Under the pieces are notes generated by a model. That model saw only the letters and a list, made by a program, of their open reading frames with translations. It searched no databases and was not told the origin of the DNA. From the sequence record OZ346151.1: a stretch of DNA of 64,000 nt; one strand, given 5' to 3'. This DNA is from a phage. Of this stretch, positions 30,633-54,984 are shown piece by piece. A program made the translations under genes and the position numbers. Every line of letters begins with the position of its first letter. The stretch's first letter is position 1.

Positions 30633-31397
30633 TTGAAATTTATCTACAAAGAACACTACCACAAAGGTGTTGTGTGGAGTCTATTTGACGGGTCTGGTGG
30701 TGCAGTCATTGACTGGGCAAAAGCTGGGTACCTGTGCCTGTGCTTTAATGCAGAAGGCGCTGATCACGGCAGTTATGCAGAGGTTATAACCGATCATCCC
30801 AACATTCACTATGTGGATTATTGGATTGACCCATGGTTCCCTCAGGAAACTTTTTGCATGTACCCAGCTCCAGACTTTATTCTTGCATTTCCTCCGTGCA
30901 CGCATTTAGCGGTATCAGGTGCTGCACATTTTAAGAAAAAGCTGGCTAAGGACCCTCTGATCCAAATTAATGCCGTAAAGGATGCTCGGGTTGCGGAAGA
31001 GCTGGGAGAGATTTACGATTGCCCGTGGCATGTAGAGAATCCTGTGGGTGTTATGTCCACACTGTGGCGCAAACCTGATTACCGTTTTCATCCTTCTGAC
31101 TATGGTGGGTATTTACCGGAGGATGATGTAAACCCTTGGTTTCCTGAATTTATAGCTCCACGTGATGCCTATCCAAAAATAACTTGCGGCTGGATAGGTA
31201 ATGGATTTATAATCCCGCCCACAAAACCTGTCCCGCAAATAGTTGACGCGGTTAGCGGGTATTCTATGCAACACGCCAAGCTGGGTGGAAAGAGTGCAAG
31301 AACGAAGATGATTCGAAGTCTCACACCACGTGGCTGGGCAAAAGCCGTATTCTTAGCAAACGAGCCTGTAGTAAGGAGCAGAATTAATGGGAAGTAA
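30633..31397 (+). CDS. DNA cytosine-5 methyltransferase-like protein (about 254 aa)
   Basis: Motif I-like SLFDGSGG, motif IV-like FPPC (catalytic Cys), motif VI-like VENPVG; likely TTG start after AGGAGA; unusually short for a C5-MTase. Confidence 0.45.
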   Translation: MKFIYKEHYHKGVVWSLFDGSGGAVIDWAKAGYLCLCFNAEGADHGSYAEVITDHPNIHYVDYWIDPWFPQETFCMYPAPDFILAFPPCTHLAVSGAAHFKKKLAKDPLIQINAVKDARVAEELGEIYDCPWHVENPVGVMSTLWRKPDYRFHPSDYGGYLPEDDVNPWFPEFIAPRDAYPKITCGWIGNGFIIPPTKPVPQIVDAVSGYSMQHAKLGGKSARTKMIRSLTPRGWAKAVFLANEPVVRSRINGK

Positions 31398-33465
31398 ATT
31401 TATGGCATCTGCATACAACCGTTTCGGTGAGCCAAACCCGAAAGCAACTAAGTATAAAAGTGGGGGGAGTGTGAAACGAGACTATCGTGATGAAAAAGAA
31501 GTTGAAACTGTAGAGACTGTTTTAGAAAATACTAAAATTGTCCCTGTCCCACAACAAAATATCGGTCTGATGGCTGCACAATATTTTGGTGTGCGATCAG
31601 CATTGTCCCAAGAAGACGGTGTGACAGTCACTGCAACATATTTCCCATATTACGACCGCTACGGAAATCTGTCTGGTTTCAAAAAGCGTGACTGGACTAT
31701 TCCTAAAGAGCAAAGGGGCCATTTCTCCGTTGTTGGCATCGTAAAGGCCAACTCCCAGATGTTTGGTCAAAAGCTGTGTGCATCTTCCAACAACCGTAAG
31801 CAGATTAATGTTTGTGAGGGAGAAGGTGATGTTATTGCAGCATGGCAGGCTGCATATCAAATACAAGTAAAAGGGATTCTCACCAACGCTAAAGCCCCGG
31901 CAAAGGTGAAACAGTGGGCTAAAGAGGTCCAGGACGGGATCGATGCAGTTATCAACGGGGGTGATTTGGCAGGAAAACCCTGCCTGCCTTTTGTTGGAAT
32001 TAACTGTGGATGTGCAAACGCAGTAGATACTTTTGCAAACAATGAGAAATTTATCCGTAGCTACGGAACAGTGGTCCTTGCAATGGACAACGATGCGGCT
32101 AACGAGGTAGAGAAGCAAAAACACGTTATCAAAGGTGTTGAAGCCACACATAATATTGCAGCATTTTTGATGGCTGACAACGTTTACCACGTGGAATATC
32201 CTGGCGAGGTAAACGACCCTGATGGTGTAAAAGATATCCGTGACATGCTGAAGGCTAAAAAGCTGGAAGATATTGTAAACATGTTCCGGCATCCTGTTAA
32301 GTATGTGCCTGATGCTGTGTCGGATTTAGAAGACTTCTCTATCGAATCTTTGCGGAAAAAGACTTCCAACGGGGTAGATATCAGCGCAGAGTTTCCAAAA
32401 CTGCAAAAAATGCTAAAAGGCTTGCACAAAGGGACACTCGTAATGCTTACAGGTCCATCAGGAGGTGGTAAAACAACTGTAGCCAAAAAACTGGAACACT
32501 GTATTGCAAGATACCTAATGGACCCGACATGTCCAAAGGCCGATGACTACGAAGAGGATGATCGTCTATGCATGATTCATCTTGAGGAGGACCCAGAGGA
32601 AGCAATTAACTCCTTGTATGCAAACCAGTTAGGGTTTGATGTTAAAGAGTTTGTTGAAGATCCTAGCCAGTTTTTAACTGATCAAGAACATGCAGAGATT
32701 CACCAATCATGGGCAAAAGCTGGAAAAATCAAAGTGTTCAAACATTTCGGGTCTATTCCAGTGGACGAGTTGATTACCAAGCTTAAGCAAATGGTTTGCC
32801 TGTACCATTGTCGCTATATTGTGCTGGATCACCTGTCTATGGTAATTTCAGGGCTTAATGTTAAAGATGAGCGAAAAGAACTGGACATGGCTATGACTCA
32901 GCTGGCTGCGTTTTGTAAGCAGTTTAACGTGTTTATCTTGGTGATCGCTCACCTCAAACGTACAGAGATTGTGCCTCCTAAGGACAAGGATGGTAACCCA
33001 TTACCTTTCTGGTATCCTGTGCGAAAAGAGAATTTGCGAGGATCGGCTGGGCTTGAACAGTTGAGTTGGGTAGTCATAGGTGTCGAGGCCGAAGAAATGG
33101 TGGATCGTTCTCGTGGGCGTGTCCGTCTGGTAGGTCTTAAAAACCGTCCAGCAAAAACTTTAGGTATTGCTGACACTTTAGTTATGGACCCACATACAGG
33201 TAAGTTCCATGATGCCAGTAATTGGTACTGGGACAAAGAAATGCAGATGTTTACAGACGGAGAAGGTGGGGAGGTTGTTTGGAGACCTCAGGCCATGTTT
33301 GAGGACCAAGAGCATGCAGTTGTAGAAACACCTATGGGCAAGGTTGTAGCCGATAAGGTTGTAACTCCTACTATTAAGCCTGTTGACACGCAGGAAGACC
33401 TTCAGTACGATGATCCATCCTCTGATCCGGTCCCCGGTTTTGAGGATGATGAAACACCTTTTTAA
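31387..33465 (+). CDS. bifunctional DNA primase-helicase (toprim plus DnaB-like SF4 helicase, T7 gp4-like)
   Basis: Toprim acidic motif VVLAMDNDAAN; Walker A LTGPSGGGKT; Walker B-like YIVLDHLSMV; 692 aa. Confidence 0.8.
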   Translation: MGSKFMASAYNRFGEPNPKATKYKSGGSVKRDYRDEKEVETVETVLENTKIVPVPQQNIGLMAAQYFGVRSALSQEDGVTVTATYFPYYDRYGNLSGFKKRDWTIPKEQRGHFSVVGIVKANSQMFGQKLCASSNNRKQINVCEGEGDVIAAWQAAYQIQVKGILTNAKAPAKVKQWAKEVQDGIDAVINGGDLAGKPCLPFVGINCGCANAVDTFANNEKFIRSYGTVVLAMDNDAANEVEKQKHVIKGVEATHNIAAFLMADNVYHVEYPGEVNDPDGVKDIRDMLKAKKLEDIVNMFRHPVKYVPDAVSDLEDFSIESLRKKTSNGVDISAEFPKLQKMLKGLHKGTLVMLTGPSGGGKTTVAKKLEHCIARYLMDPTCPKADDYEEDDRLCMIHLEEDPEEAINSLYANQLGFDVKEFVEDPSQFLTDQEHAEIHQSWAKAGKIKVFKHFGSIPVDELITKLKQMVCLYHCRYIVLDHLSMVISGLNVKDERKELDMAMTQLAAFCKQFNVFILVIAHLKRTEIVPPKDKDGNPLPFWYPVRKENLRGSAGLEQLSWVVIGVEAEEMVDRSRGRVRLVGLKNRPAKTLGIADTLVMDPHTGKFHDASNWYWDKEMQMFTDGEGGEVVWRPQAMFEDQEHAVVETPMGKVVADKVVTPTIKPVDTQEDLQYDDPSSDPVPGFEDDETPF

Positions 33466-33523: not shown

Positions 33524-35953
33524 ATGAGCATGTGGTCGTTCGACTTTGAGTCATCCGGTTTGCTGGAAGACCCAGATCTTTATTATCACTGCGGCCTGTT
33601 TAAAGAGCTGAATAAGAACCGTTTTATGCTGTTCCTTCCTCTAAATGACCGCACACACTACTCCGAGGAGGATATAGAAAAGGCTAAGAACTTCATTCTG
33701 GCAAAGAAAACTCTTTATAAAGATTTTGAAGTTCGCATAGCAGATTTTTCAGAGTTGGAAGGTTGGCTTACAGGAAATTCTGACTGGTCACCAACAGCTT
33801 TGAACTGCCATAACTGCTACAGTTATGACTTTATGCTGATGGAAAGATTATCTGGTATTCATTTTGATATGTTCCGTGATCCTAAGTGTATGGGGACTAT
33901 CAACGATCACCAGGTTAACCTGTTTGATACGTTGGCGATGAGCCGAATCTTGTGGCCTGATCGCCCTTTACCAAAAGGTTGTCCGGACTCTGTATTCAAC
34001 CCGGTTACTAAGAAAATGCAGCCTGTTGGTCCTCACGGCCTTATGGCATGGGGCTACGCCCTTGGTAACCAGAAAGTTCAAATTGATGACTGGCGCGATC
34101 TTCCGTTATGGAAGTATGTGGATCGTGTATTTGAGGACGTTATCATCCAGGAGCTGCTCTGGAAAGAGCTGGTAGCGGAATCAAAAGGTGTATTCTACGG
34201 CAAATCTGACATGCAGAACTTTATGTACGATCCTGCCAAAGAGAAGCCGAAAGGGTTCAAGAAGATCACCTGGAAGAACGCATTACGTCGAGGCATGTTG
34301 CAGCACTTCCTGATGGAGCTGCAGGCCCGTCAGGGTGTATACTTCGACATAGATGGGGCTATTGCTTTACGTGACCGCTGCGATGCGTGGATGAAAGAGA
34401 TCGCTGATCGTGTTGAACCACAACTGCCTTTAAAAGAGCTGTCAATGTCTCAGCGGCCCAAGTTCCCTGAAAAGCCGTTTAACCAAGATGGGACAATCTC
34501 TAATAATGGTTGGAAATGGTTAAAAGATAAGCTTGGCTATCCTGTGGACATGAGTGCTTTAGAGTTCAAAGCCCCACCTAAGCGAGCATTTACCTCTACA
34601 GGAGATGTCAGTAAGATGGGGATAAAATGGTGTGAAGAGATGGGCTGCAAAGACCACGATAAGATGGCTGATTTCTTGAGAGGTTATATTAAGGGCACCT
34701 CCACACCACAACCTTTACCTAAAGAGCTGATGGATCAGGCAATAAGCGATCTGCAACAGAAGCGAATGCCTGACTGCAAGATACCTATGAAAATCAGCAA
34801 TCAGGACGACATTAAGCGATACCTGATCAGTGCTGGTTGGCTTCCGACAATGTGGAGAACTAAGGATGTAACTAAGGACAGCAAGAAGAAAGCTCTACCT
34901 GATGCAGATGTTGATGCACGAGTATATGCATACATGGACGAGCTTTTAGAGTCAGAGTATTGTGACCTAATTATCAACTTCTGGAACAAAACTGATGCTA
35001 AGTTTCAGACAACAGTGCACAAGTTCCGAAGCTTTCCTAACTCCGAAAGGATTAAAAAGGAAGTGTTCGGGAAAATACGCAGAAAAGCCAGGGCACTTAT
35101 TACTTCTCCGCAACTGAAAGATACGTTTGGACACCTATGTCCGAATCTTGAAAAATTGAACGGAGAGATGGCTAAAGATATCGTCTTGTGGTTATCATTG
35201 CGAAACCGCAGATCGGTCCTTGATCCAATCAAGGAGGATAAGGTTGATACTGGTCTTCTTAATCACCCACGTTTGAAGATTGACCATAAGCTTCCTGCTA
35301 AAAGCTCTGGATTAACAAACACTTCCCGACAGAAACACAGTATTTGTGCAAACATGCCTAAACCATCTCCTAAAGTGGTTATGGGTAAAGAGATGCGTAG
35401 CTTGTGGGGTGTTCCTCCTGGATACTTTGAGATCGGTATTGACGGGTCCAACTTAGAGCAGCTTATCGGGGCTTGGGGTGCCTTTGAGTTCGACAACGGC
35501 TTGTACTATGATGTTGTAAGTAACGGGGACGCACACCAAAACAATGCTGAGGCATATACAAAAGTAGCAGGCAGAGAGGTGTCTCGTAACGACGGTAAAC
35601 CTATCACGTATGGGGTTATGTACGGGGCACAAAAAGATAAAGTTGCAGATATGCTGGATATCTCCCCAGAGTTGGGGCAAAGGGTGATCGATGCACTTTG
35701 GGATGCCAACCCAGGTCTTAAGGGGCGCAAAGAGGATCTGGAGAAATTCTGGGAAGCAACAGGTAAGAAGTTTATCTACTCTTTTGATGGTCATGCTATC
35801 TGGACCCGATCTAAACACTCTTTACTTAATGCATACCAACAAAATGGCGGCGCATCGTTGTGTGACTTAGTTGGGATACTCATGCACCATCAAATGGTGA
35901 AGCGTGGGTGGTACGATGAAGGTGTTCGTCGTATTATCTATTACCATAAATAA
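33524..35953 (+). CDS. family A DNA polymerase, 5' exon (unspliced reading frame ends at 35953)
   Basis: 3'-5' exonuclease Exo I FDFES near N-terminus; motif A EIGIDGSNLEQL and motif B RNDGKPITYGVMYGAQ (cf. T7 RDNAKTFIYGFLYGAG); frame stops 1-2 codons into the intron. Confidence 0.8.
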   Translation: MSMWSFDFESSGLLEDPDLYYHCGLFKELNKNRFMLFLPLNDRTHYSEEDIEKAKNFILAKKTLYKDFEVRIADFSELEGWLTGNSDWSPTALNCHNCYSYDFMLMERLSGIHFDMFRDPKCMGTINDHQVNLFDTLAMSRILWPDRPLPKGCPDSVFNPVTKKMQPVGPHGLMAWGYALGNQKVQIDDWRDLPLWKYVDRVFEDVIIQELLWKELVAESKGVFYGKSDMQNFMYDPAKEKPKGFKKITWKNALRRGMLQHFLMELQARQGVYFDIDGAIALRDRCDAWMKEIADRVEPQLPLKELSMSQRPKFPEKPFNQDGTISNNGWKWLKDKLGYPVDMSALEFKAPPKRAFTSTGDVSKMGIKWCEEMGCKDHDKMADFLRGYIKGTSTPQPLPKELMDQAISDLQQKRMPDCKIPMKISNQDDIKRYLISAGWLPTMWRTKDVTKDSKKKALPDADVDARVYAYMDELLESEYCDLIINFWNKTDAKFQTTVHKFRSFPNSERIKKEVFGKIRRKARALITSPQLKDTFGHLCPNLEKLNGEMAKDIVLWLSLRNRRSVLDPIKEDKVDTGLLNHPRLKIDHKLPAKSSGLTNTSRQKHSICANMPKPSPKVVMGKEMRSLWGVPPGYFEIGIDGSNLEQLIGAWGAFEFDNGLYYDVVSNGDAHQNNAEAYTKVAGREVSRNDGKPITYGVMYGAQKDKVADMLDISPELGQRVIDALWDANPGLKGRKEDLEKFWEATGKKFIYSFDGHAIWTRSKHSLLNAYQQNGGASLCDLVGILMHHQMVKRGWYDEGVRRIIYYHK

Positions 35954-44340: not shown

Positions 44341-44586
44341 ATGAACAAAGGGTGGACATTTGTAGACGGCGTTAAAAACATGCCTCTAGGAAAGTATATT
44401 GTAGCCATGGCAGATGAGAATGGCAAGGTTGATTTCGGAGTTTGCGAGGTTGTTCTTGCAGGATCTGGTGACTATGCTCACAAAACTGGGATAATTAACG
44501 GTCATTTCTACTTTGATTACAACCCTGTTGTGGCGTATATGGCTATGCCAGAGTTCGAGCTCCCAAAGGAAGGTGCAGATGTTTAA
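44341..44586 (+). CDS. hypothetical protein (81 aa)
   Basis: AGGAGA RBS and ATG. Confidence 0.4.
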   Translation: MNKGWTFVDGVKNMPLGKYIVAMADENGKVDFGVCEVVLAGSGDYAHKTGIINGHFYFDYNPVVAYMAMPEFELPKEGADV

Positions 44587-44776
44587 GCTTAAATCTGCAT
44601 GGAACATCGCTGTGGGGGACGAGATCCGTATCCCAGGTGGAAAGACCATTATGAAAATATCTCGTATCGAGTACGAAGGTGATCGTGTATTTCATATCTT
44701 TGCAGAAGATGGTCGAGAGATTTATATACAGGTAGGATCTCACATCTATATTCGTAAGAAAGGGGAGGACAAATGA
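44582..44776 (+). CDS. hypothetical protein (about 64 aa)
   Basis: ATG after AAGGAAGG; overlaps upstream stop. Confidence 0.4.
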   Translation, partial: FKLKSAWNIAVGDEIRIPGGKTIMKISRIEYEGDRVFHIFAEDGREIYIQVGSHIYIRKKGEDK

Positions 44777-45102
44777 CAGAGATCATCATTTCAACTGCAG
44801 GGTATGTATTCCTGACAATCATTGCACTGGCTATTTTGGTGACAGTGTATGGGTTTGTTATCCTTCCTATCCTTGAGACATTTAGTTTGTGTCGGTGTTG
44901 GAGAAAAGCTTACGGTCCACAACCATGGAAGGACTGGCCCCACCTGGTGCGCTTAGCGTTCTCTTATGCTTACGATCACTCCAGTAGTGCATGCATAACC
45001 GGATACCACGCCCACAACTGGAGCTGGGAAGGGTTGAGGAAATGGAATGTTACAAAGACCATACCTCTGCGCATGTACAAACCTAAAAACAAAGACAACT
45101 GA
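44773..45102 (+). CDS. membrane protein (109 aa)
   Basis: GGGGAGG RBS; N-terminal hydrophobic helix IISTAGYVFLTIIALAILVTVYGFVILPIL. Confidence 0.45.
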   Translation: MTEIIISTAGYVFLTIIALAILVTVYGFVILPILETFSLCRCWRKAYGPQPWKDWPHLVRLAFSYAYDHSSSACITGYHAHNWSWEGLRKWNVTKTIPLRMYKPKNKDN

Positions 45103-45410
45103 TACTTGAAAATTCCTGGCATATCAAGTATAAGGGGGATTTCTAAAATGGATTTCCTCCTTTTGATATTTCACCGGGCTGGATATTTTAAAATTCTTAG
45201 AAAATCAGAAAATGGATCGAAAACTAAAATGGATTTTTCAGAGTAGGCGCGACAAGCTGAATAACTCATCCTATCGTTTGCACCATATTCCAGGCCACCA
45301 TTATAGATTTCCCACACATGCTAACCTCTCCCTACTAGAACTTCCTCCACTTACCCTTGACCTTCTATGGTAACAATCTAACCGCTATCTTGAAGTTGCG
45401 GTGCAGCTTT

Positions 45411-45600
45411 CCAGGTACTCGATCTACTTTTCATTTCAGGGCTTGGATTTTCTGAAAATTTTTCTCGATAAATTTCTCAGTACTCGATCTGTTTTTCGTT
45501 TTCTGAATCGGATTTTCTGGAAATCGTTCCGGCTCTCAACCTGAAATTTTTGGGGACGAAATCGATTTTTCGTTTTCAGAAATGGATTTTTAAAATTTCT
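45411..45600. repeat. iteron-like imperfect tandem direct repeats (about 64-bp unit, 2 full copies plus a partial one)
   Basis: CAGGTACTCGATCTACTTTTCATTTCAGG...GGATTTTCTGAAAAT recurs as CAGTACTCGATCTGTTTTTCGTTTTCTG...GGATTTTCTGGAAAT, then a partial CGATTTTTCGTTTTCAG...GGATTTTTAAAAT. Confidence 0.5.
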
Positions 45601-45705
45601 ATATGGGAATATTTTAGTGGATACTGTTTTATAGGAAATTGTTACGGAGGGTAATTAGCATGCTAATTAAATTTATTAAATGCGAGGAGTTCTCATTTAG
45701 AATTT

Positions 45706-45930
45706 TGAATGATAATCATTCTCGTTTGCAGAATAACGGGCAGGCCCGGTGATTGTCTCCCGGCCCCTGTTGCCCCGGCTTGTTATTATAGTATCACACA
45801 GGACAAAGAAAGCAAGGACTTTTTGCATAAATTTTTAAATGATAATGATAACCGTTCTCATTTTATGCAGCGCCCATCCCCGGTGGTTGTCTCCCCCGTC
45901 ACCGGTGCCTGCCGTCCTTTCGATATGTAT
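45706..45930. repeat. pair of about 85-bp imperfect direct repeats in non-coding DNA
   Basis: GATAATCATTCTCGTTTGCAG...CCCGGTGATTGTCTCCCGGCCCC recurs about 130 bp downstream as GATAACCGTTCTCATTTTATGCAG...CCCGGTGGTTGTCTCCCCCGTC. Confidence 0.4.
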
Positions 45931-46286
45931 ATTGTGCCACCTGGCGGGGCCGCTGTCAACACTTTTCAAAAAATTTTTCTAACCTGGTGCGCTAACCGTT
46001 GCAACCTGGCGGGGCCAGCCTGGCAGGACCTAACTGACCAGGTAGGGGAGAATGAAGGCTTGTAAACCTGGTGGGCCTATGCTACAGGATAGGTAACAAT
46101 TGAAGAGGAGGTACAAAAATGATATGATCCCCCTGGAAAATGTAGCTATTAATGACTCTGAGGCTATCGCCCTGGTTGAAAAGGCTATGGCGGGAGCGTT
46201 GGAACATAAAGAAGAGTACGAAAATGGTGGTTAACCTGGCGGGGGCGGCAGGTGGATTCTATCATAAAAATAATTTAAAATAGTAG

Positions 46287-46314
46287 TTGACAACAAGGTT
46301 AATCATGGTATTAT
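46287..46314 (+). promoter_or_regulatory. sigma70-like promoter (TTGACA-16-TATTAT)
   Basis: Consensus -35 with good -10, upstream of the 46365 gene. Confidence 0.5.
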
Positions 46315-46364
46315 TACCCTACAAGGTGAACAACACCGCACTAACCAGTAAAGAGGATAAATTT

Positions 46365-46562
46365 ATGAACGCATACGGGATCAAAGTACGTCGCAACACT
46401 CGCCAGGTGGTCACCAATCAAGTGATTTGCCGGGTGGATGTAACCATCAACAACGGGCAAGGCCTTTATAAATTTCGTCGCGGTCATAGCTATACCCTGC
46501 AACAGCTTAATCGTTGCGCCCTGACAAAAGGTCAGATCAACCACTGGTTTAATAAAAAATAA
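46365..46562 (+). CDS. small basic hypothetical protein (about 65 aa)
   Basis: ATG after AGAGGATAAA; first of a run of small rightward genes. Confidence 0.45.
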   Translation: MNAYGIKVRRNTRQVVTNQVICRVDVTINNGQGLYKFRRGHSYTLQQLNRCALTKGQINHWFNKK

Positions 46563-46565
46563 GTA

Positions 46566-46594
46566 TTGACATACAGTCAGACACCAAATACACT
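46566..46594 (+). promoter_or_regulatory. sigma70-like promoter (TTGACA-17-TACACT)
   Basis: Consensus -35 and TAnnnT -10 upstream of the 46627 gene. Confidence 0.45.
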
Positions 46595-46626
46595 AAAAGC
46601 ACAAAAGACACTAAGAGGATAAAATC

Positions 46627-46812
46627 ATGAAAACCACTACCTTTAATTTTGATAATGCAGACTTTTCTTTTTCTGATGTCAAGAACTGCCGCCGTGATCG
46701 TGGATTTTACAAGGCTTATAATCTGGTGGGCCTGGACGATGACAATAATTTGCACGAAGTAGCTGAGATCCAGCTTGACAGATTGGACGGGAAAGTACTA
46801 AAAACTTATTGA
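46627..46812 (+). CDS. hypothetical protein (61 aa)
   Basis: AAGAGGATAAAATC then ATG. Confidence 0.45.
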   Translation: MKTTTFNFDNADFSFSDVKNCRRDRGFYKAYNLVGLDDDNNLHEVAEIQLDRLDGKVLKTY

Positions 46813-46814
46813 GT

Positions 46815-46860
46815 TTATTTTTAGATGGCCTTGACACCAGGGCCATCAATAAAGTAAACT
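46815..46860 (+). promoter_or_regulatory. 46-bp palindrome-containing promoter element, copy 1
   Basis: TTATTTTTAGATGGCCTTGACACCAGGGCCATCAATAAAGTAAACT; TTGACA sits in the loop of a GATGGCC/GGCCATC inverted repeat. Confidence 0.5.
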
Positions 46861-47012
46861 AACCACAGTTGAGCGGAAAAGGAGGCTTAAAGATGAGCAC
46901 TACACGCCAGCACACAAAGGTAACCATCATCGTTTGCATCATTGGGTACATCCTGGCGCAAATGTTGATGGGTAGCGCCAACGGTGTCGCAAAATTTTTC
47001 TTAAACTTTTAA

Positions 47013-47091: not shown

Positions 47092-47433
47092 ATGACTACT
47101 ATGACCGCCTCAGAAAAAGCTATGCAGATCGCTGAACTGAAAAAACAGATCGCAGACCTTGAGAATAAGATCGATAACTTTGAAATCGACGAGGACAAGT
47201 ACGACGAAAACTATGATGAATGGTTAGACGAGATCTACGGCGAAATTATGATCGGAAACATTTCTTTTCTTCCGTCGCGTATCCTCAAGGAGCTAGATCC
47301 TATCGCTTACCGCTGCGGATTTAGCGACTACATCGACAGCCTGGATATTGAGGACGATGAAGAATACCAGGAATTACAGACAGAGTTAGAAGAAGCAAAA
47401 GAAGAGCTTGCGGAGCTGGAAGAAAACGAGTAA
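47092..47433 (+). CDS. highly acidic coiled-coil protein (113 aa)
   Basis: AAAGGAGAAAAACACC then ATG; E/D-rich heptad-like sequence. Confidence 0.5.
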   Translation: MTTMTASEKAMQIAELKKQIADLENKIDNFEIDEDKYDENYDEWLDEIYGEIMIGNISFLPSRILKELDPIAYRCGFSDYIDSLDIEDDEEYQELQTELEEAKEELAELEENE

Positions 47434-47435
47434 GC

Positions 47436-47481
47436 TTATTTTTAGATGGCCTTGACACCAGGGCCATCAATAAAGTAAACT
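47436..47481 (+). promoter_or_regulatory. 46-bp palindrome-containing promoter element, copy 2 (identical to copy 1)
   Basis: Exact repeat of the 46815 element immediately after the stop of the preceding gene. Confidence 0.5.
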
Positions 47482-51766: not shown

Positions 51767-52051
51767 ATGGCTATTGTTACCGCTGGCGATGTAGTAGAAA
51801 TGGAAGCAAAATACTTAAAAGCGGGTATGCATATCCTACGCAACGATCTTGAACTGGTCCTGACAATGGTTGACTATAACCCAGGGCAAGATTATCCAAG
51901 TGTTGACTACTTTTTTGAGTATGTTGATGAAGAGTTGAAAGAGGATGAGGCCTATTGCGGTGAGTTCTGCAACTTCTTTTGTCCTGATGAGGTTGTAAAG
52001 GTTATCTATCAACCTGGCGTAGCTTTCCCGCTGCACGCTATCAATAAATAA
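51767..52051 (+). CDS. hypothetical acidic protein (94 aa)
   Basis: TAGGAGTTAAAACC then ATG. Confidence 0.45.
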   Translation: MAIVTAGDVVEMEAKYLKAGMHILRNDLELVLTMVDYNPGQDYPSVDYFFEYVDEELKEDEAYCGEFCNFFCPDEVVKVIYQPGVAFPLHAINK

Positions 52052-52055
52052 ACCT

Positions 52056-52080
52056 GGCGGGGGCCTTTTCGGCCCCCGCC
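52056..52080. terminator. strong GC hairpin, terminator candidate (weak T-tract on + strand)
   Basis: GGCGGGGGCC-tttt-GGCCCCCGCC perfect 10-bp stem; shares the AACCTGGCGGGG motif found four times in 45.9-46.3 kb. Confidence 0.35.
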
Positions 52081-52114
52081 TGAAATTATGAAAAATAAAA
52101 AGAGGCAAACTATC

Positions 52115-53454: not shown

Positions 53455-54984
53455 TAGATTATTAGCCTGTTAATTGTTAGTCAGTCAAATCAACAACGTT
53501 ATCATTTCAGTCTTTATTGTTGTTGATCGTTATTGTTATCATGCAAACGAATGGCATGGCTTATCATTTTTGAGTAAACAATCTATACGTGAACAGTGAG
53601 GCATGCAATAGTAAGGGCGGGAATAATGAGAGTGTAAACTGTCAAGGGTAATGTCAATTATATCAATCGTGTCAGTTATGTCACCATTATGTCAGCAGAG
53701 TTTTTCTCCTCTTTGTCAAGTGCTGCATGCCCACACAAATAGTAAGAAATATAATTGTTATGTGCGTAAACAGTAACTCATGTTATCAATCCCTGTATGT
53801 ATCGCCAGTGGTGCGCATAATGGGTATTATGTTAAATTGCCCGTAATGATAATGGTTCTCACAATGATAGGTATTCTCATTCCCCCACACAAAATAGATT
53901 GCAAATGTTGTGCCACTATGTGAACGGCCTCACCTATTAATTTGCCTCACTGCCTCGATATTTGAGAATTATCATAAGAATGAGAAGTATTCCCATTTCG
54001 TCCGCCTGGCAGCACTCCAGTCGCTACGGCTCAGAACAGGGCAGAATTGTGTCCATTCAGATATTTCTGTCTGGCTCTTCAGGTCTGTGTGGGAAAAGTC
54101 CACCTCTCTGGCGGGGCATGGGGTCATGACGGGAAAATTGCAGGTCAATTAAAAAATTTACGTGGTGTATGAAGCGCTCTTCAGGTAAGGCATGTATTAT
54201 GGGATGAAACCCTCTTCAGGCAATGATATTTGTGGGTGTGATATTTGCTGGAAAGCCAGATATGACGGGACTCCCGGCGGGGCAGGGGTAGTACAGACAG
54301 GGGAAATATGGAGGATGTGGTTAGGTGAATTGATCAGACAGGTAGAGTATGGAATATGTTACAGGTATGTTAAATAGGGCGGCTGAATATCTGTAGGATT
54401 TGTGTGTAAAATCAAAGACTTAAGTGGTGTTGTGGTATTTTCTATAAATAATTCAAGTTTAATAGGTAATATTTGTCTCTATTCGCTTTGTGTGGTAAAC
54501 AGATTCAGATGAGATTGGTTTACAAGCGTATACATAATATACAAATTAAAGATACAAGAAACCCCCCTCCCCCTTCGGCTACCATTCACCTTTTCCTCTG
54601 ACTGGTACTTAAACACTTATTCAGACTCTTCAGGTTATCACCCATATATCATATGGCAGTGACTGGTGTCCTCCGGCCCCTCTTTCGTCACCCGTCCGCT
54701 TCGCCATGCTAATGCCATAGCCAATGGTTCGGTTGTTCACCCTGTTCACTCAGGTGTATCTCCATACCCCTTCAAAACGAAGAGAACAGAAAACCCGAAT
54801 TACTCGGTAAAAGAAAAGAGAAGAACTTAATTTTATCAGGATAGGCAAGAATGTCAAGGCATGACTGCTCACTAAACAAGCAAACAGTCATGTGTGGGAG
54901 GTAAGTGATTGTGGTGGTAGGAAATTTAGTTGAAAGATGTGTTATAGGTGCTTCCAGCACTTTAGCCGGGCAGCTAATTGTGTG

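Follow-up and report, generated by a model that had tools for sequence, protein, structure and literature searches.

A conserved non-coding region with predicted Fur boxes, promoters and AT-rich repeats in rV5-like phages as a possible iron-gated replication origin or control switch

Transcription-activated replication origins are known from phages T7 and T4: the primary origin of T7 places the tandem promoters phi1.1A/B ahead of an AT-rich segment, and the oriF and oriG origins of T4 join a promoter to a downstream unwinding element. In bacteria, Fur boxes are known as classical transcriptional operators. Chen et al. described that Fur recognition is kept across distantly related bacteria, with sites clustering at 3- or 6-bp offsets, and Blanvillain et al. 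obtained from nine experimentally Fur-repressed Xanthomonas genes a Fur consensus that is in line with the boxes of B. subtilis and Shewanella. The injection-stop region of T5, at ~8% of the genome, is conserved, untranslated and unexplained, and the word “iron” occurs nowhere in the text that reviews it (Davison, bioRxiv 10.1101/866236). Here, we describe a repeat-rich region of 1.2 kb, at 45110–46285 of a 64,000-nucleotide stretch of phage DNA from record OZ346151.1 (this whole stretch is called “the window” below), which carries elements reminiscent of all of these systems. As judged from its sequence and that of its relatives, it is a control region that acts in cis, is non-coding and has been conserved among rV5-like phages, and we tentatively favor the reading that it works as an iron-gated replication origin or control switch. 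The rV5-like phages are in wide use as candidates for therapy and biocontrol, and their origins and early control regions are unmapped; in the rV5 genome paper, skew analysis failed to locate the origin, and a “non-coding” box stands somewhere in the genome map.

The window belongs to a Vequintavirus, that is, an rV5-like myovirus of E. coli. A query of positions 44500–47000 is 99.1% identical to phage EdH4, at least 80% of this query is present in 113 phage records, and the 1.2-kb region is colinear with EdH4, where its equivalent is found at 11.0–12.2 kb. Beyond the genus, a sensitive search found a core of 60–150 nt, 72–88% identical, in Seunavirus, Mydovirus, Henunavirus, Certrevirus, and Phapecoctavirus, always within an unannotated 700–900-bp gap inside a co-directional block of small genes, and an exact-match IMG/VR search with a longer core returned the two known isolates only. 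One and the same order of elements is kept in 11 phages of 6 genera (five of the Vequintavirinae, besides Phapecoctavirus), the other DNA having diverged: first three AT-rich repeats of ~70 bp, then one to three palindromes matching the Fur-box consensus, then TTTGCAGAAT, then CGGTGnTTGTCTC, and then CGCTATGT with a TATAAT-like box, with CAAG following ~17 nt further on. The variable segments within the genus are 45253–45402 and 45973–46092. The region had been taken to be non-coding, and this holds by a codon-position test, with the exception of a mini-ORF at 46124–46234, inside its right edge: variation at the three codon positions is 13/9/44 in a flanking gene, and 22/27/20 and 13/9/15 in the ORFs that submitters annotated here in relatives. 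We therefore rejected protein coding, given that these annotated ORFs lack third-position bias and are broken by frameshifts or stop codons.

The region holds two predicted Fur boxes, each of them part of a module that also carries predicted promoters and is duplicated in this genus (modules A and B). Both modules together (45643–45942) are 93–100% conserved within the genus, above the flanking genes. The preliminary description of this DNA had seen here a pair of ~85-bp direct repeats at 45706–45930; the duplication is real, but its members are diverged module copies, offset by 134–136 bp over ~90 aligned columns, in which two blocks are near-identical, namely the Fur box and CCCGGTGnTTGTCT. 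Predicted Fur box A, AATGATAAT-C-ATTCTCGTT at 45708–45726, has a 7-1-7 core with 1 mismatch; it agrees with the Xanthomonas Fur consensus AATGAgAATcATTctCATT at 17/19 positions, and its counterparts in relatives at 19/19. Moreover, the 16-mer ATAATCATTCTCGTTT is common to box A and the fhuA promoter of E. coli K-12, whose Fur site was confirmed by gel shift (Chen et al.). Predicted Fur box B consists of overlapping sites in GATAATGATAACCGTTCTCATT at 45841–45862, with a 7-1-7 match at 45846, and it is here, at 45841, that the E. coli Fur 19-mer with up to 3 mismatches finds its single match in the 64 kb, against 0.01 expected. In PVP-SE1, Hena1, and DU_PP_I, the palindrome AATGAGAATCATTCTCATT equals the Xanthomonas consensus of Blanvillain et al. 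letter for letter. By this consensus match, well above chance, the module palindrome is a Fur box at the level of sequence.

The second component of the module is a set of promoters, which we called as predictions with a simple sigma70 scoring matrix in 11 module instances. The best-scoring promoter lies on the minus strand, at one fixed position, in all 11 of them, even though its -35 hexamer varies by genus (TTGCTT, TTGACA, TTGATC, TTGACC, or TTGCAA). In module A, this predicted leftward promoter occupies 45785–45815, with the -35 element TTGCTT at 45815–45810 and the -10 element TACTAT or TATAAT at 45793–45785, and it aims through Fur box A into the AT-rich block on the left. In module B, the predicted leftward promoter TTGACA-17-TGgCACAAT at 45931–45959 has the best score of the region (14.7), and its spacer is the first copy of a GC-rich motif treated below. 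A weaker rightward promoter, TTGAAT-18-CAGAAT (45705–45734, score 9.0), is predicted with Fur box A itself as its spacer; it is found at the same position in 7/11 module instances, being absent from module B, KpS8, and Phapecoctavirus. Between the Fur box and the leftward promoter lies the motif CGGTGATTGTCTC (45747–45759 in module A and 45881–45893 in module B), which is invariant in all genera; its minus strand reads GAGACA, resembling a -35 element, and no conserved RNA pairing accounts for it. A T7-primase recognition site (TTGTC) within this motif was considered, but its strand logic did not fit, and we make no claim for it. In Seunavirus and Mydovirus, leftward transcription is real, as shown by a minus-strand gene of 60 aa, located right of the module, whose copies have diverged to 50–55% identity; the window has no such small leftward gene, which in other genera is of the PVP-SE1 gp201 type. 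As a separate observation, a further conserved non-coding element of the other genera (CTACCGGCGATCCACC...) lies to the right of the module, reading CTACCGGCGATCCACCTTCC...GTTAGCCCCGCC...GGGGTGGCG (2630–2760, 2690–2780, 2650–2740, and 2680–2770 of loci L006, L007, L008, and L009, respectively). It is downstream of a predicted leftward promoter, has no Rfam match, and is likewise absent from the window.

The third component is the AT-rich repeat block. Four classes of repeats had been listed in the preliminary description, and we found all of them at or near the places given there, beyond chance, with some corrections. The imperfect tandem repeats of ~64 bp reported for 45411–45600 are three direct repeats at 45405–45469, 45470–45543, and 45544–45612, with corrected periods of 65 and 74 bp, and we refer to them as “iterons”. 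Each unit within 45405–45612 carries the motif GTACTCGATC..TTTTC..(T/C)GGATTTT..AAAATTT, and the core GTACTCGATCTNNTTTTC has exact matches here only. In local alignments, iteron pairs are 76–88% identical, with scores of 24–42 against a shuffle mean of ~14 and a shuffle maximum of 25; two of the three pairings are far above the shuffles, and the weakest, that of units 1 and 3, does not leave their range. The iterons are 93–99% conserved within Vequintavirus (profile; 45433–45612), again above the flanking genes, and Seunavirus, Mydovirus, Henunavirus, and Certrevirus have homologous triple repeats at the equivalent place. Further to the left, the short repeats seen earlier at 45145–45230 are copies of AAAATGGAT(T/C) on the plus strand, starting at 45145, 45209, and 45226 (within 45145–45235); they are exactly three and the only ones in the 64 kb, and the block 45193–45222 among them is 99% conserved within the genus.

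The region had been called AT-rich as a whole, which is true of its left two-thirds and not of the remainder. Its least stable duplex (45573–45722), a candidate DNA unwinding element, takes in repeat 3 along with the spacer before Fur box A. Stretches of 100 and 150 bp starting at 45573–45581 rank first, as the least stable, in the 64-kb window, and across the 136 kb of the EdH4 genome a single site is less stable than this duplex. In the other genera too, each locus has its stability minima within the 100–650 bp to the left of the module. GATC (Dam) sites show no enrichment in the window, and relatives such as KpS8 have many GATC sites within the repeats.

Taking these components together, we suggest the following working model. 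Leftward sigma70 transcripts, antisense to the flanking genes, would have to pass the Fur box on their way into the AT-rich repeats; Fe2+-Fur bound to the boxes would gate this leftward transcription and also the weaker rightward promoter whose spacer is the box; and transcription into the easily unwound AT-rich repeats would, by analogy with the T7 and T4 origins, activate a replication origin. The putative switch would sit at the border between the block of replication genes and the terminal block of small genes. The reading as an origin or control switch is favored because promoters aimed into AT-rich, easily unwound repeats, together with a replisome of the T7 type, make up the layout of a transcription-activated origin: promoters into the melting minimum are predicted in 11/11 modules, and a gp4-like primase/helicase and a family-A DNA polymerase are encoded upstream in the same orientation (31387–33465 and 33524–35953, respectively). 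Also present are the features of an iteron origin, that is, a conserved array of direct repeats with an adjacent AT-rich unwinding element. Hence, where the preliminary description offered a replication origin, this is plausible from the cross-genus repeats, the adjacent stability minimum, and the predicted promoters aimed into it; where it offered a dense regulatory region, this is borne out by two operators of Fur consensus, conserved leftward predicted promoters, and a run of rightward promoters from the right edge on.

Several observations weigh against an iron-gated origin or switch, and we suggest keeping them in mind. The Fur box lies ~55–60 nt downstream of the strong leftward start, an unusual geometry for repression, and no leftward terminator was found in the region. 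The flanking proteins have no recognizable initiator domains, no DnaA box was seen on reading the region, and the repeat units exceed classical iterons three- to fourfold in length. The site of lowest stability in the EdH4 genome is elsewhere, at 96.1 kb, and the comparable region of T5 is not thought to be an origin (Davison, bioRxiv 10.1101/866236). Finally, four more boxes lie in a terminal repeat, where no promoter is expected, so that the boxes may have a non-transcriptional role. On the EdH4 minimum itself, we observed that ~96,015–96,390 holds the least stable 100–300-bp duplex genome-wide; this intergenic gap of 375 bp, close to a place where the coding strands diverge, is an alternative origin candidate.

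The main rival of this origin or switch is a purely transcriptional one, in which the region would be a boundary or insulator between gene blocks, the promoters and Fur operators would halt or modulate read-through with no role in replication, and the AT-rich repeats would be bent DNA, weak terminators, or sites for a regulator. We consider this rather unlikely, and still the first alternative to be weighed. It draws on the setting of the region between co-directional blocks, with a run of strong sigma70 promoters starting at 46287, on the classical operator role of Fur boxes, on the conservation of the antisense promoters, and on the Fur boxes of other phages, which are found at the +1 of strong promoters; besides, each repeat has inverted repeats of T-runs and A-runs followed by T-tracts, and one of these scored as terminator-like. 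However, stems made only of AU pairs are poor terminators, and a transcriptional boundary leaves unexplained both the conservation of long repeats and melting minimum across genera above that of genes and the presence of Fur-type boxes in a terminal repeat devoid of promoters.

These terminal boxes deserve their own description. The 7-1-7 motif has 7 matches in the window against 1.4 expected, and four of them are two tandem pairs of Fur-type boxes at 53843–53997, in the homologue of the EdH4 terminal redundancy (EdH4 nt 12–160, in both copies of the repeat). In EdH4, the first Fur-type box begins 12 nt from the physical end, at a convergent gene junction, and of the 15 Fur-type matches in the whole genome, 12 map to the terminal repeats, to the initial 2 kb, or to the region described here. 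Such a distribution brings in another possibility, an entry or takeover boundary like the “injection stop” (iss) of T5, in which the DNA from the end to the region (~8% of the genome) would be the first-acting takeover block, and the boxes would bind an abundant host protein that pauses, anchors, or protects the incoming DNA, or would soak up Fur. This entry reading is weaker, with a small chance of being right in our estimate, but intriguing in view of the boxes near the genome end and the location at ~8%. Placed by its EdH4 homologue, the region is 8.1–9.0% from the physical left end, compared with ~8% for the T5 iss, which is likewise a conserved, untranslated region of repeats and palindromes, of 1.2–1.7 kb; the terminal block is made up of small genes that have strong promoters; the concentration of EdH4 boxes fits too, and T5-like phages share the palindrome, as detailed below. 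On the other hand, no two-step injection is known for rV5-like myoviruses, the terminal repeat is of 459 bp and not of ~10 kb, the region has no pairs of DnaA boxes, and it has no sequence similarity to the T5-like region beyond the Fur boxes.

The same type of box is found in many other phages. Among the IMG/VR matches listed, a search with the palindrome pattern gave >120 contigs, to which the perfect Fur palindrome added 50, and the following statistics cover the 173 unique sites, perfect or near-perfect palindromes, among these matches (loci L023–L190), from very diverse viral contigs. Outside ORFs are 80% of the sites, against a non-coding background of 29%. A strict strong promoter precedes 21 of them, and in 18 of these 21 the -10 element ends 9–13 nt upstream of the box, which thereby covers the +1. 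DnaA boxes are ~five-fold enriched nearby, an enrichment driven by six loci; in three loci (L115, L061, and L078), the Fur box lies between clusters of DnaA boxes and short direct repeats, and in L061 the cluster is 1.9 kb upstream of a gp4-like primase/helicase. We also noticed in the listed contigs a recurrent unit, TTGACA-N17-TAAAAT-CGGCGCC-AAATGAGAATGATTCTCATT, sometimes several times per contig and often followed by palindrome-rich non-coding DNA. A common gene under these Fur-box promoters was looked for as well, and none emerged, many of the units preceding non-coding DNA. In T5-like phages, the same palindrome occurs in the terminal repeats along with an array of ~270 bp of full and half sites with a period of ~23 bp, as in the left terminal repeat of phage DT571/2 (L065, 6360–6990), where the array stands beside DnaA-type boxes; further T5-like loci with the palindrome are L028, L068, L084, L093, L095, L121, and L129. 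From these sequence matches, one may ask whether unrelated virulent phages (rV5-like, phAPEC8-like, T5-like, and many uncultivated ones) co-opted host Fur at key cis-acting sites, which we regard as doubtful for now.

The region might instead encode small non-coding RNAs, e.g., Fur-regulated sRNAs like RyhB, or antisense RNAs. A Fur box beside promoter-like hexamers indeed resembles the layout of a Fur-regulated sRNA gene, the predicted facing promoters would yield overlapping transcripts, and RNA read from the minus strand of module A is somewhat more stable in its fold than shuffled sequences are (z = −2.9). Most single-sequence folds, however, are at chance level, including those of module B and of the plus-strand RNA, and no intrinsic terminator follows either module. 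Rfam scans gave no match in the window region or in four distant loci, and RNAalifold on the module found 0 pairs on the plus strand and, on the minus strand, the Fur palindrome only, with no covariation. We give this RNA alternative a slim chance. A hairpin seen by eye, with the conserved loop GTGnTTGTCTC, was dropped, as it was not recovered as a consensus structure.

The region had also been proposed as a packaging site, and this part did not hold. Korf et al. reported terminal redundancies of 458 bp in EdH4 and HdK5, and in the EdH4 record bases 1–459 equal the last 459, a segment that maps to ~53,670–54,006 of the window. The defined ends of EdH4 are thus ~8 kb downstream of the region, and the terminase gene is ~80 kb away in the EdH4 genome. 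A packaging initiation site or genome terminus at this place is highly improbable, in spite of the repeat-rich architecture, which resembles that of some pac sites, and of the boxes of the same type beside the true terminus. One GenBank record could be taken in its favor, that of Enterobacter phage EC152 (a Seunavirus; PP681140.1; L015 nt 1 and the end of L196), since this linear record breaks within repeat 1 of the homologous region, with eight nt (TACTCGAT) missing compared with GAP31; it has no terminal redundancy, and the break may reflect either an assembly that stopped at a repeat or a true genome end. The pseudo-ToxI antitoxin repeats of the rV5-like phage phiTE were considered as a counterpart too and rejected, as the phiTE locus is elsewhere in the genome, beside tRNA and terminase genes. 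In summary, the packaging, non-coding RNA, and coding readings are poorly supported.

The right-hand stretch of the region has a different character. Four copies of a GC motif had been noted there, of which three are exact ACCTGGCGGGG (45939, 46004, and 46234) and the one at about 46065 is degenerate (ACCTGGTGGGC). With one more exact copy at 52052, beyond the region, the window has 4 matches against 0.47 expected. The motif had been counted as part of a functional arrangement, which we do not sustain, as its copies are mostly in a deletion-prone, dispensable stretch. This GC-rich variable stretch (45939–46092, plus strand) includes the copies at 45939 and 46004 and degenerate ones at 45982 and 46066; its conservation of 0.49–0.78 is the lowest in the region, and relatives have suffered independent deletions of 69, 48, 24, and 14 bp in it, the 69-bp one reaching precisely from the first copy to the second. 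The fold of this stretch is not more stable than those of shuffled sequences (z = −0.06). Copy 3 (46234–46244, plus strand) is in a small hairpin, ACCTG-N10-CAGGT (z = −1.8), just upstream of the promoter at 46287. The GC-motif copies are hairpin arms in a dispensable spacer and not core parts. Outside the region, a perfect GC hairpin, GGCGGGGGCC-TTTTC-GGCCCCCGCC (52040–52085), directly after a stop codon, has the copy at 52052 as its left arm; with its T-rich tract on the opposite strand, this hairpin may be a bidirectional or minus-strand terminator. The mini-ORF on the plus strand (46124–46234) is of 36 aa here and 57 aa in EdH4. It is dispensable, and its core is intact in 7/10 genomes. 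In the window, a 7-bp deletion (46119–46127) has truncated its start; among relatives, an A-run of 5–7 bases (~46220) shifts the frame of its tail. It has no Pfam match.

As for the gene neighborhood, the region lies between two rightward gene blocks, as had been described. Its left neighbor is a 109-aa gene ending at 45102, and on its right follows a series of small genes, each with its own strong predicted sigma70 promoter; the block opens with the predicted strong rightward promoter TTGACA-16-TGgTATTAT at 46287–46314 (11/12 matches and an extended -10). In EdH4, the same transcription unit runs from ~38 kb down to ~1.5 kb, with rIIA/B, helicases, a methylase, and the polymerase preceding the region of interest. 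No tRNA genes were found in the 64-kb window. Within the small-gene block, ~685 bp of EdH4 (L001 5283–5966) are missing from the window at ~46771; gone with them are the 3′ part of a 132-aa gene, which JLBYU08 annotates as a putative acetyltransferase, and the 5′ part of the gene after it, and what is left of the two forms a fused ORF (46627–46812). Close by, a 49-bp intergenic segment with the promoter TTGACA-18-TAAACT is duplicated almost exactly, at 46812–46860 and 47433–47481, 621 bp apart, and looks like a reused promoter cassette. Regarding database records, ~17 entries titled “Campylobacter phage” (MG0656xx) are ~91–97% identical to this E. coli phage group, and CP057073.1 (137.6 kb), filed as an E. 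coli “plasmid”, is the genome of a Vequintavirus; probably, these are mislabeled or carry-over sequences. A host or plasmid source of the module was searched for and discarded, there being no match in E. coli chromosomes and the sole “plasmid” match being a misfiled Vequintavirus genome.

The importance of an iron-gated origin or switch, if it is confirmed, would be a dependence of phage transcription or replication on iron and the Fur protein of the host, which would matter in the iron-limited gut or at infection sites. If host Fur was indeed co-opted by unrelated phages, Fur sites at termini, origin-like regions, and entry or takeover boundaries would tie entry, early transcription, or replication to iron status; alternatively, multiplying phage DNA would soak up Fur and so derepress host iron uptake. 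The palindromes of the T5 injection-stop region would then be Fur sites, providing a concrete handle on a region that has had no molecular explanation for decades. In the searchable literature, we found no paper linking Fur boxes to phage genomes, nor a report of perfect Fur-consensus palindromes in conserved untranslated regions of many virulent phages.

Compared with the known systems, the boxes are most similar to those of Fur-repressed promoters of Enterobacteria such as E. coli fhuA, with which they share the 7-1-7 or 9-1-9 palindrome, the fhuA 16-mer, and overlapping or tandem sites, and box A forms the spacer of a weak predicted promoter in 7/11 modules. In contrast to the bacterial cases, a virulent phage carries them, within non-coding DNA that no iron-related gene follows; the strongest predicted promoter starts ~55–60 nt away and reads through the box, and further boxes lie in the terminal repeat. 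With iteron origins of plasmids and lambdoid phages, the region has in common direct repeats beside an easily melted AT-rich segment, conserved above the neighboring genes, although the units are of 65–74 bp instead of ~17–22 bp, and neither an adjacent initiator gene nor a DnaA box was found. As in the T7 and T4 origins, tandem predicted promoters (modules B and A) aim into an AT-rich segment of minimal stability, and as in T7, there are a gp4-type primase/helicase and a family-A polymerase, the site falling in the first ~10% of a linear genome with short terminal repeats; unlike those origins, the promoters here would be host sigma70 promoters with Fur operators and not promoters for a phage polymerase, and there are three long repeats. 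Finally, the injection-stop region of T5 lies in a terminal repeat of ~10 kb with eight paired DnaA boxes, neither of which is present here, but both regions are of ~1.2 kb, conserved, untranslated, rich in repeats and palindromes, and located ~8% from one end, and both carry the same Fur-consensus palindrome.

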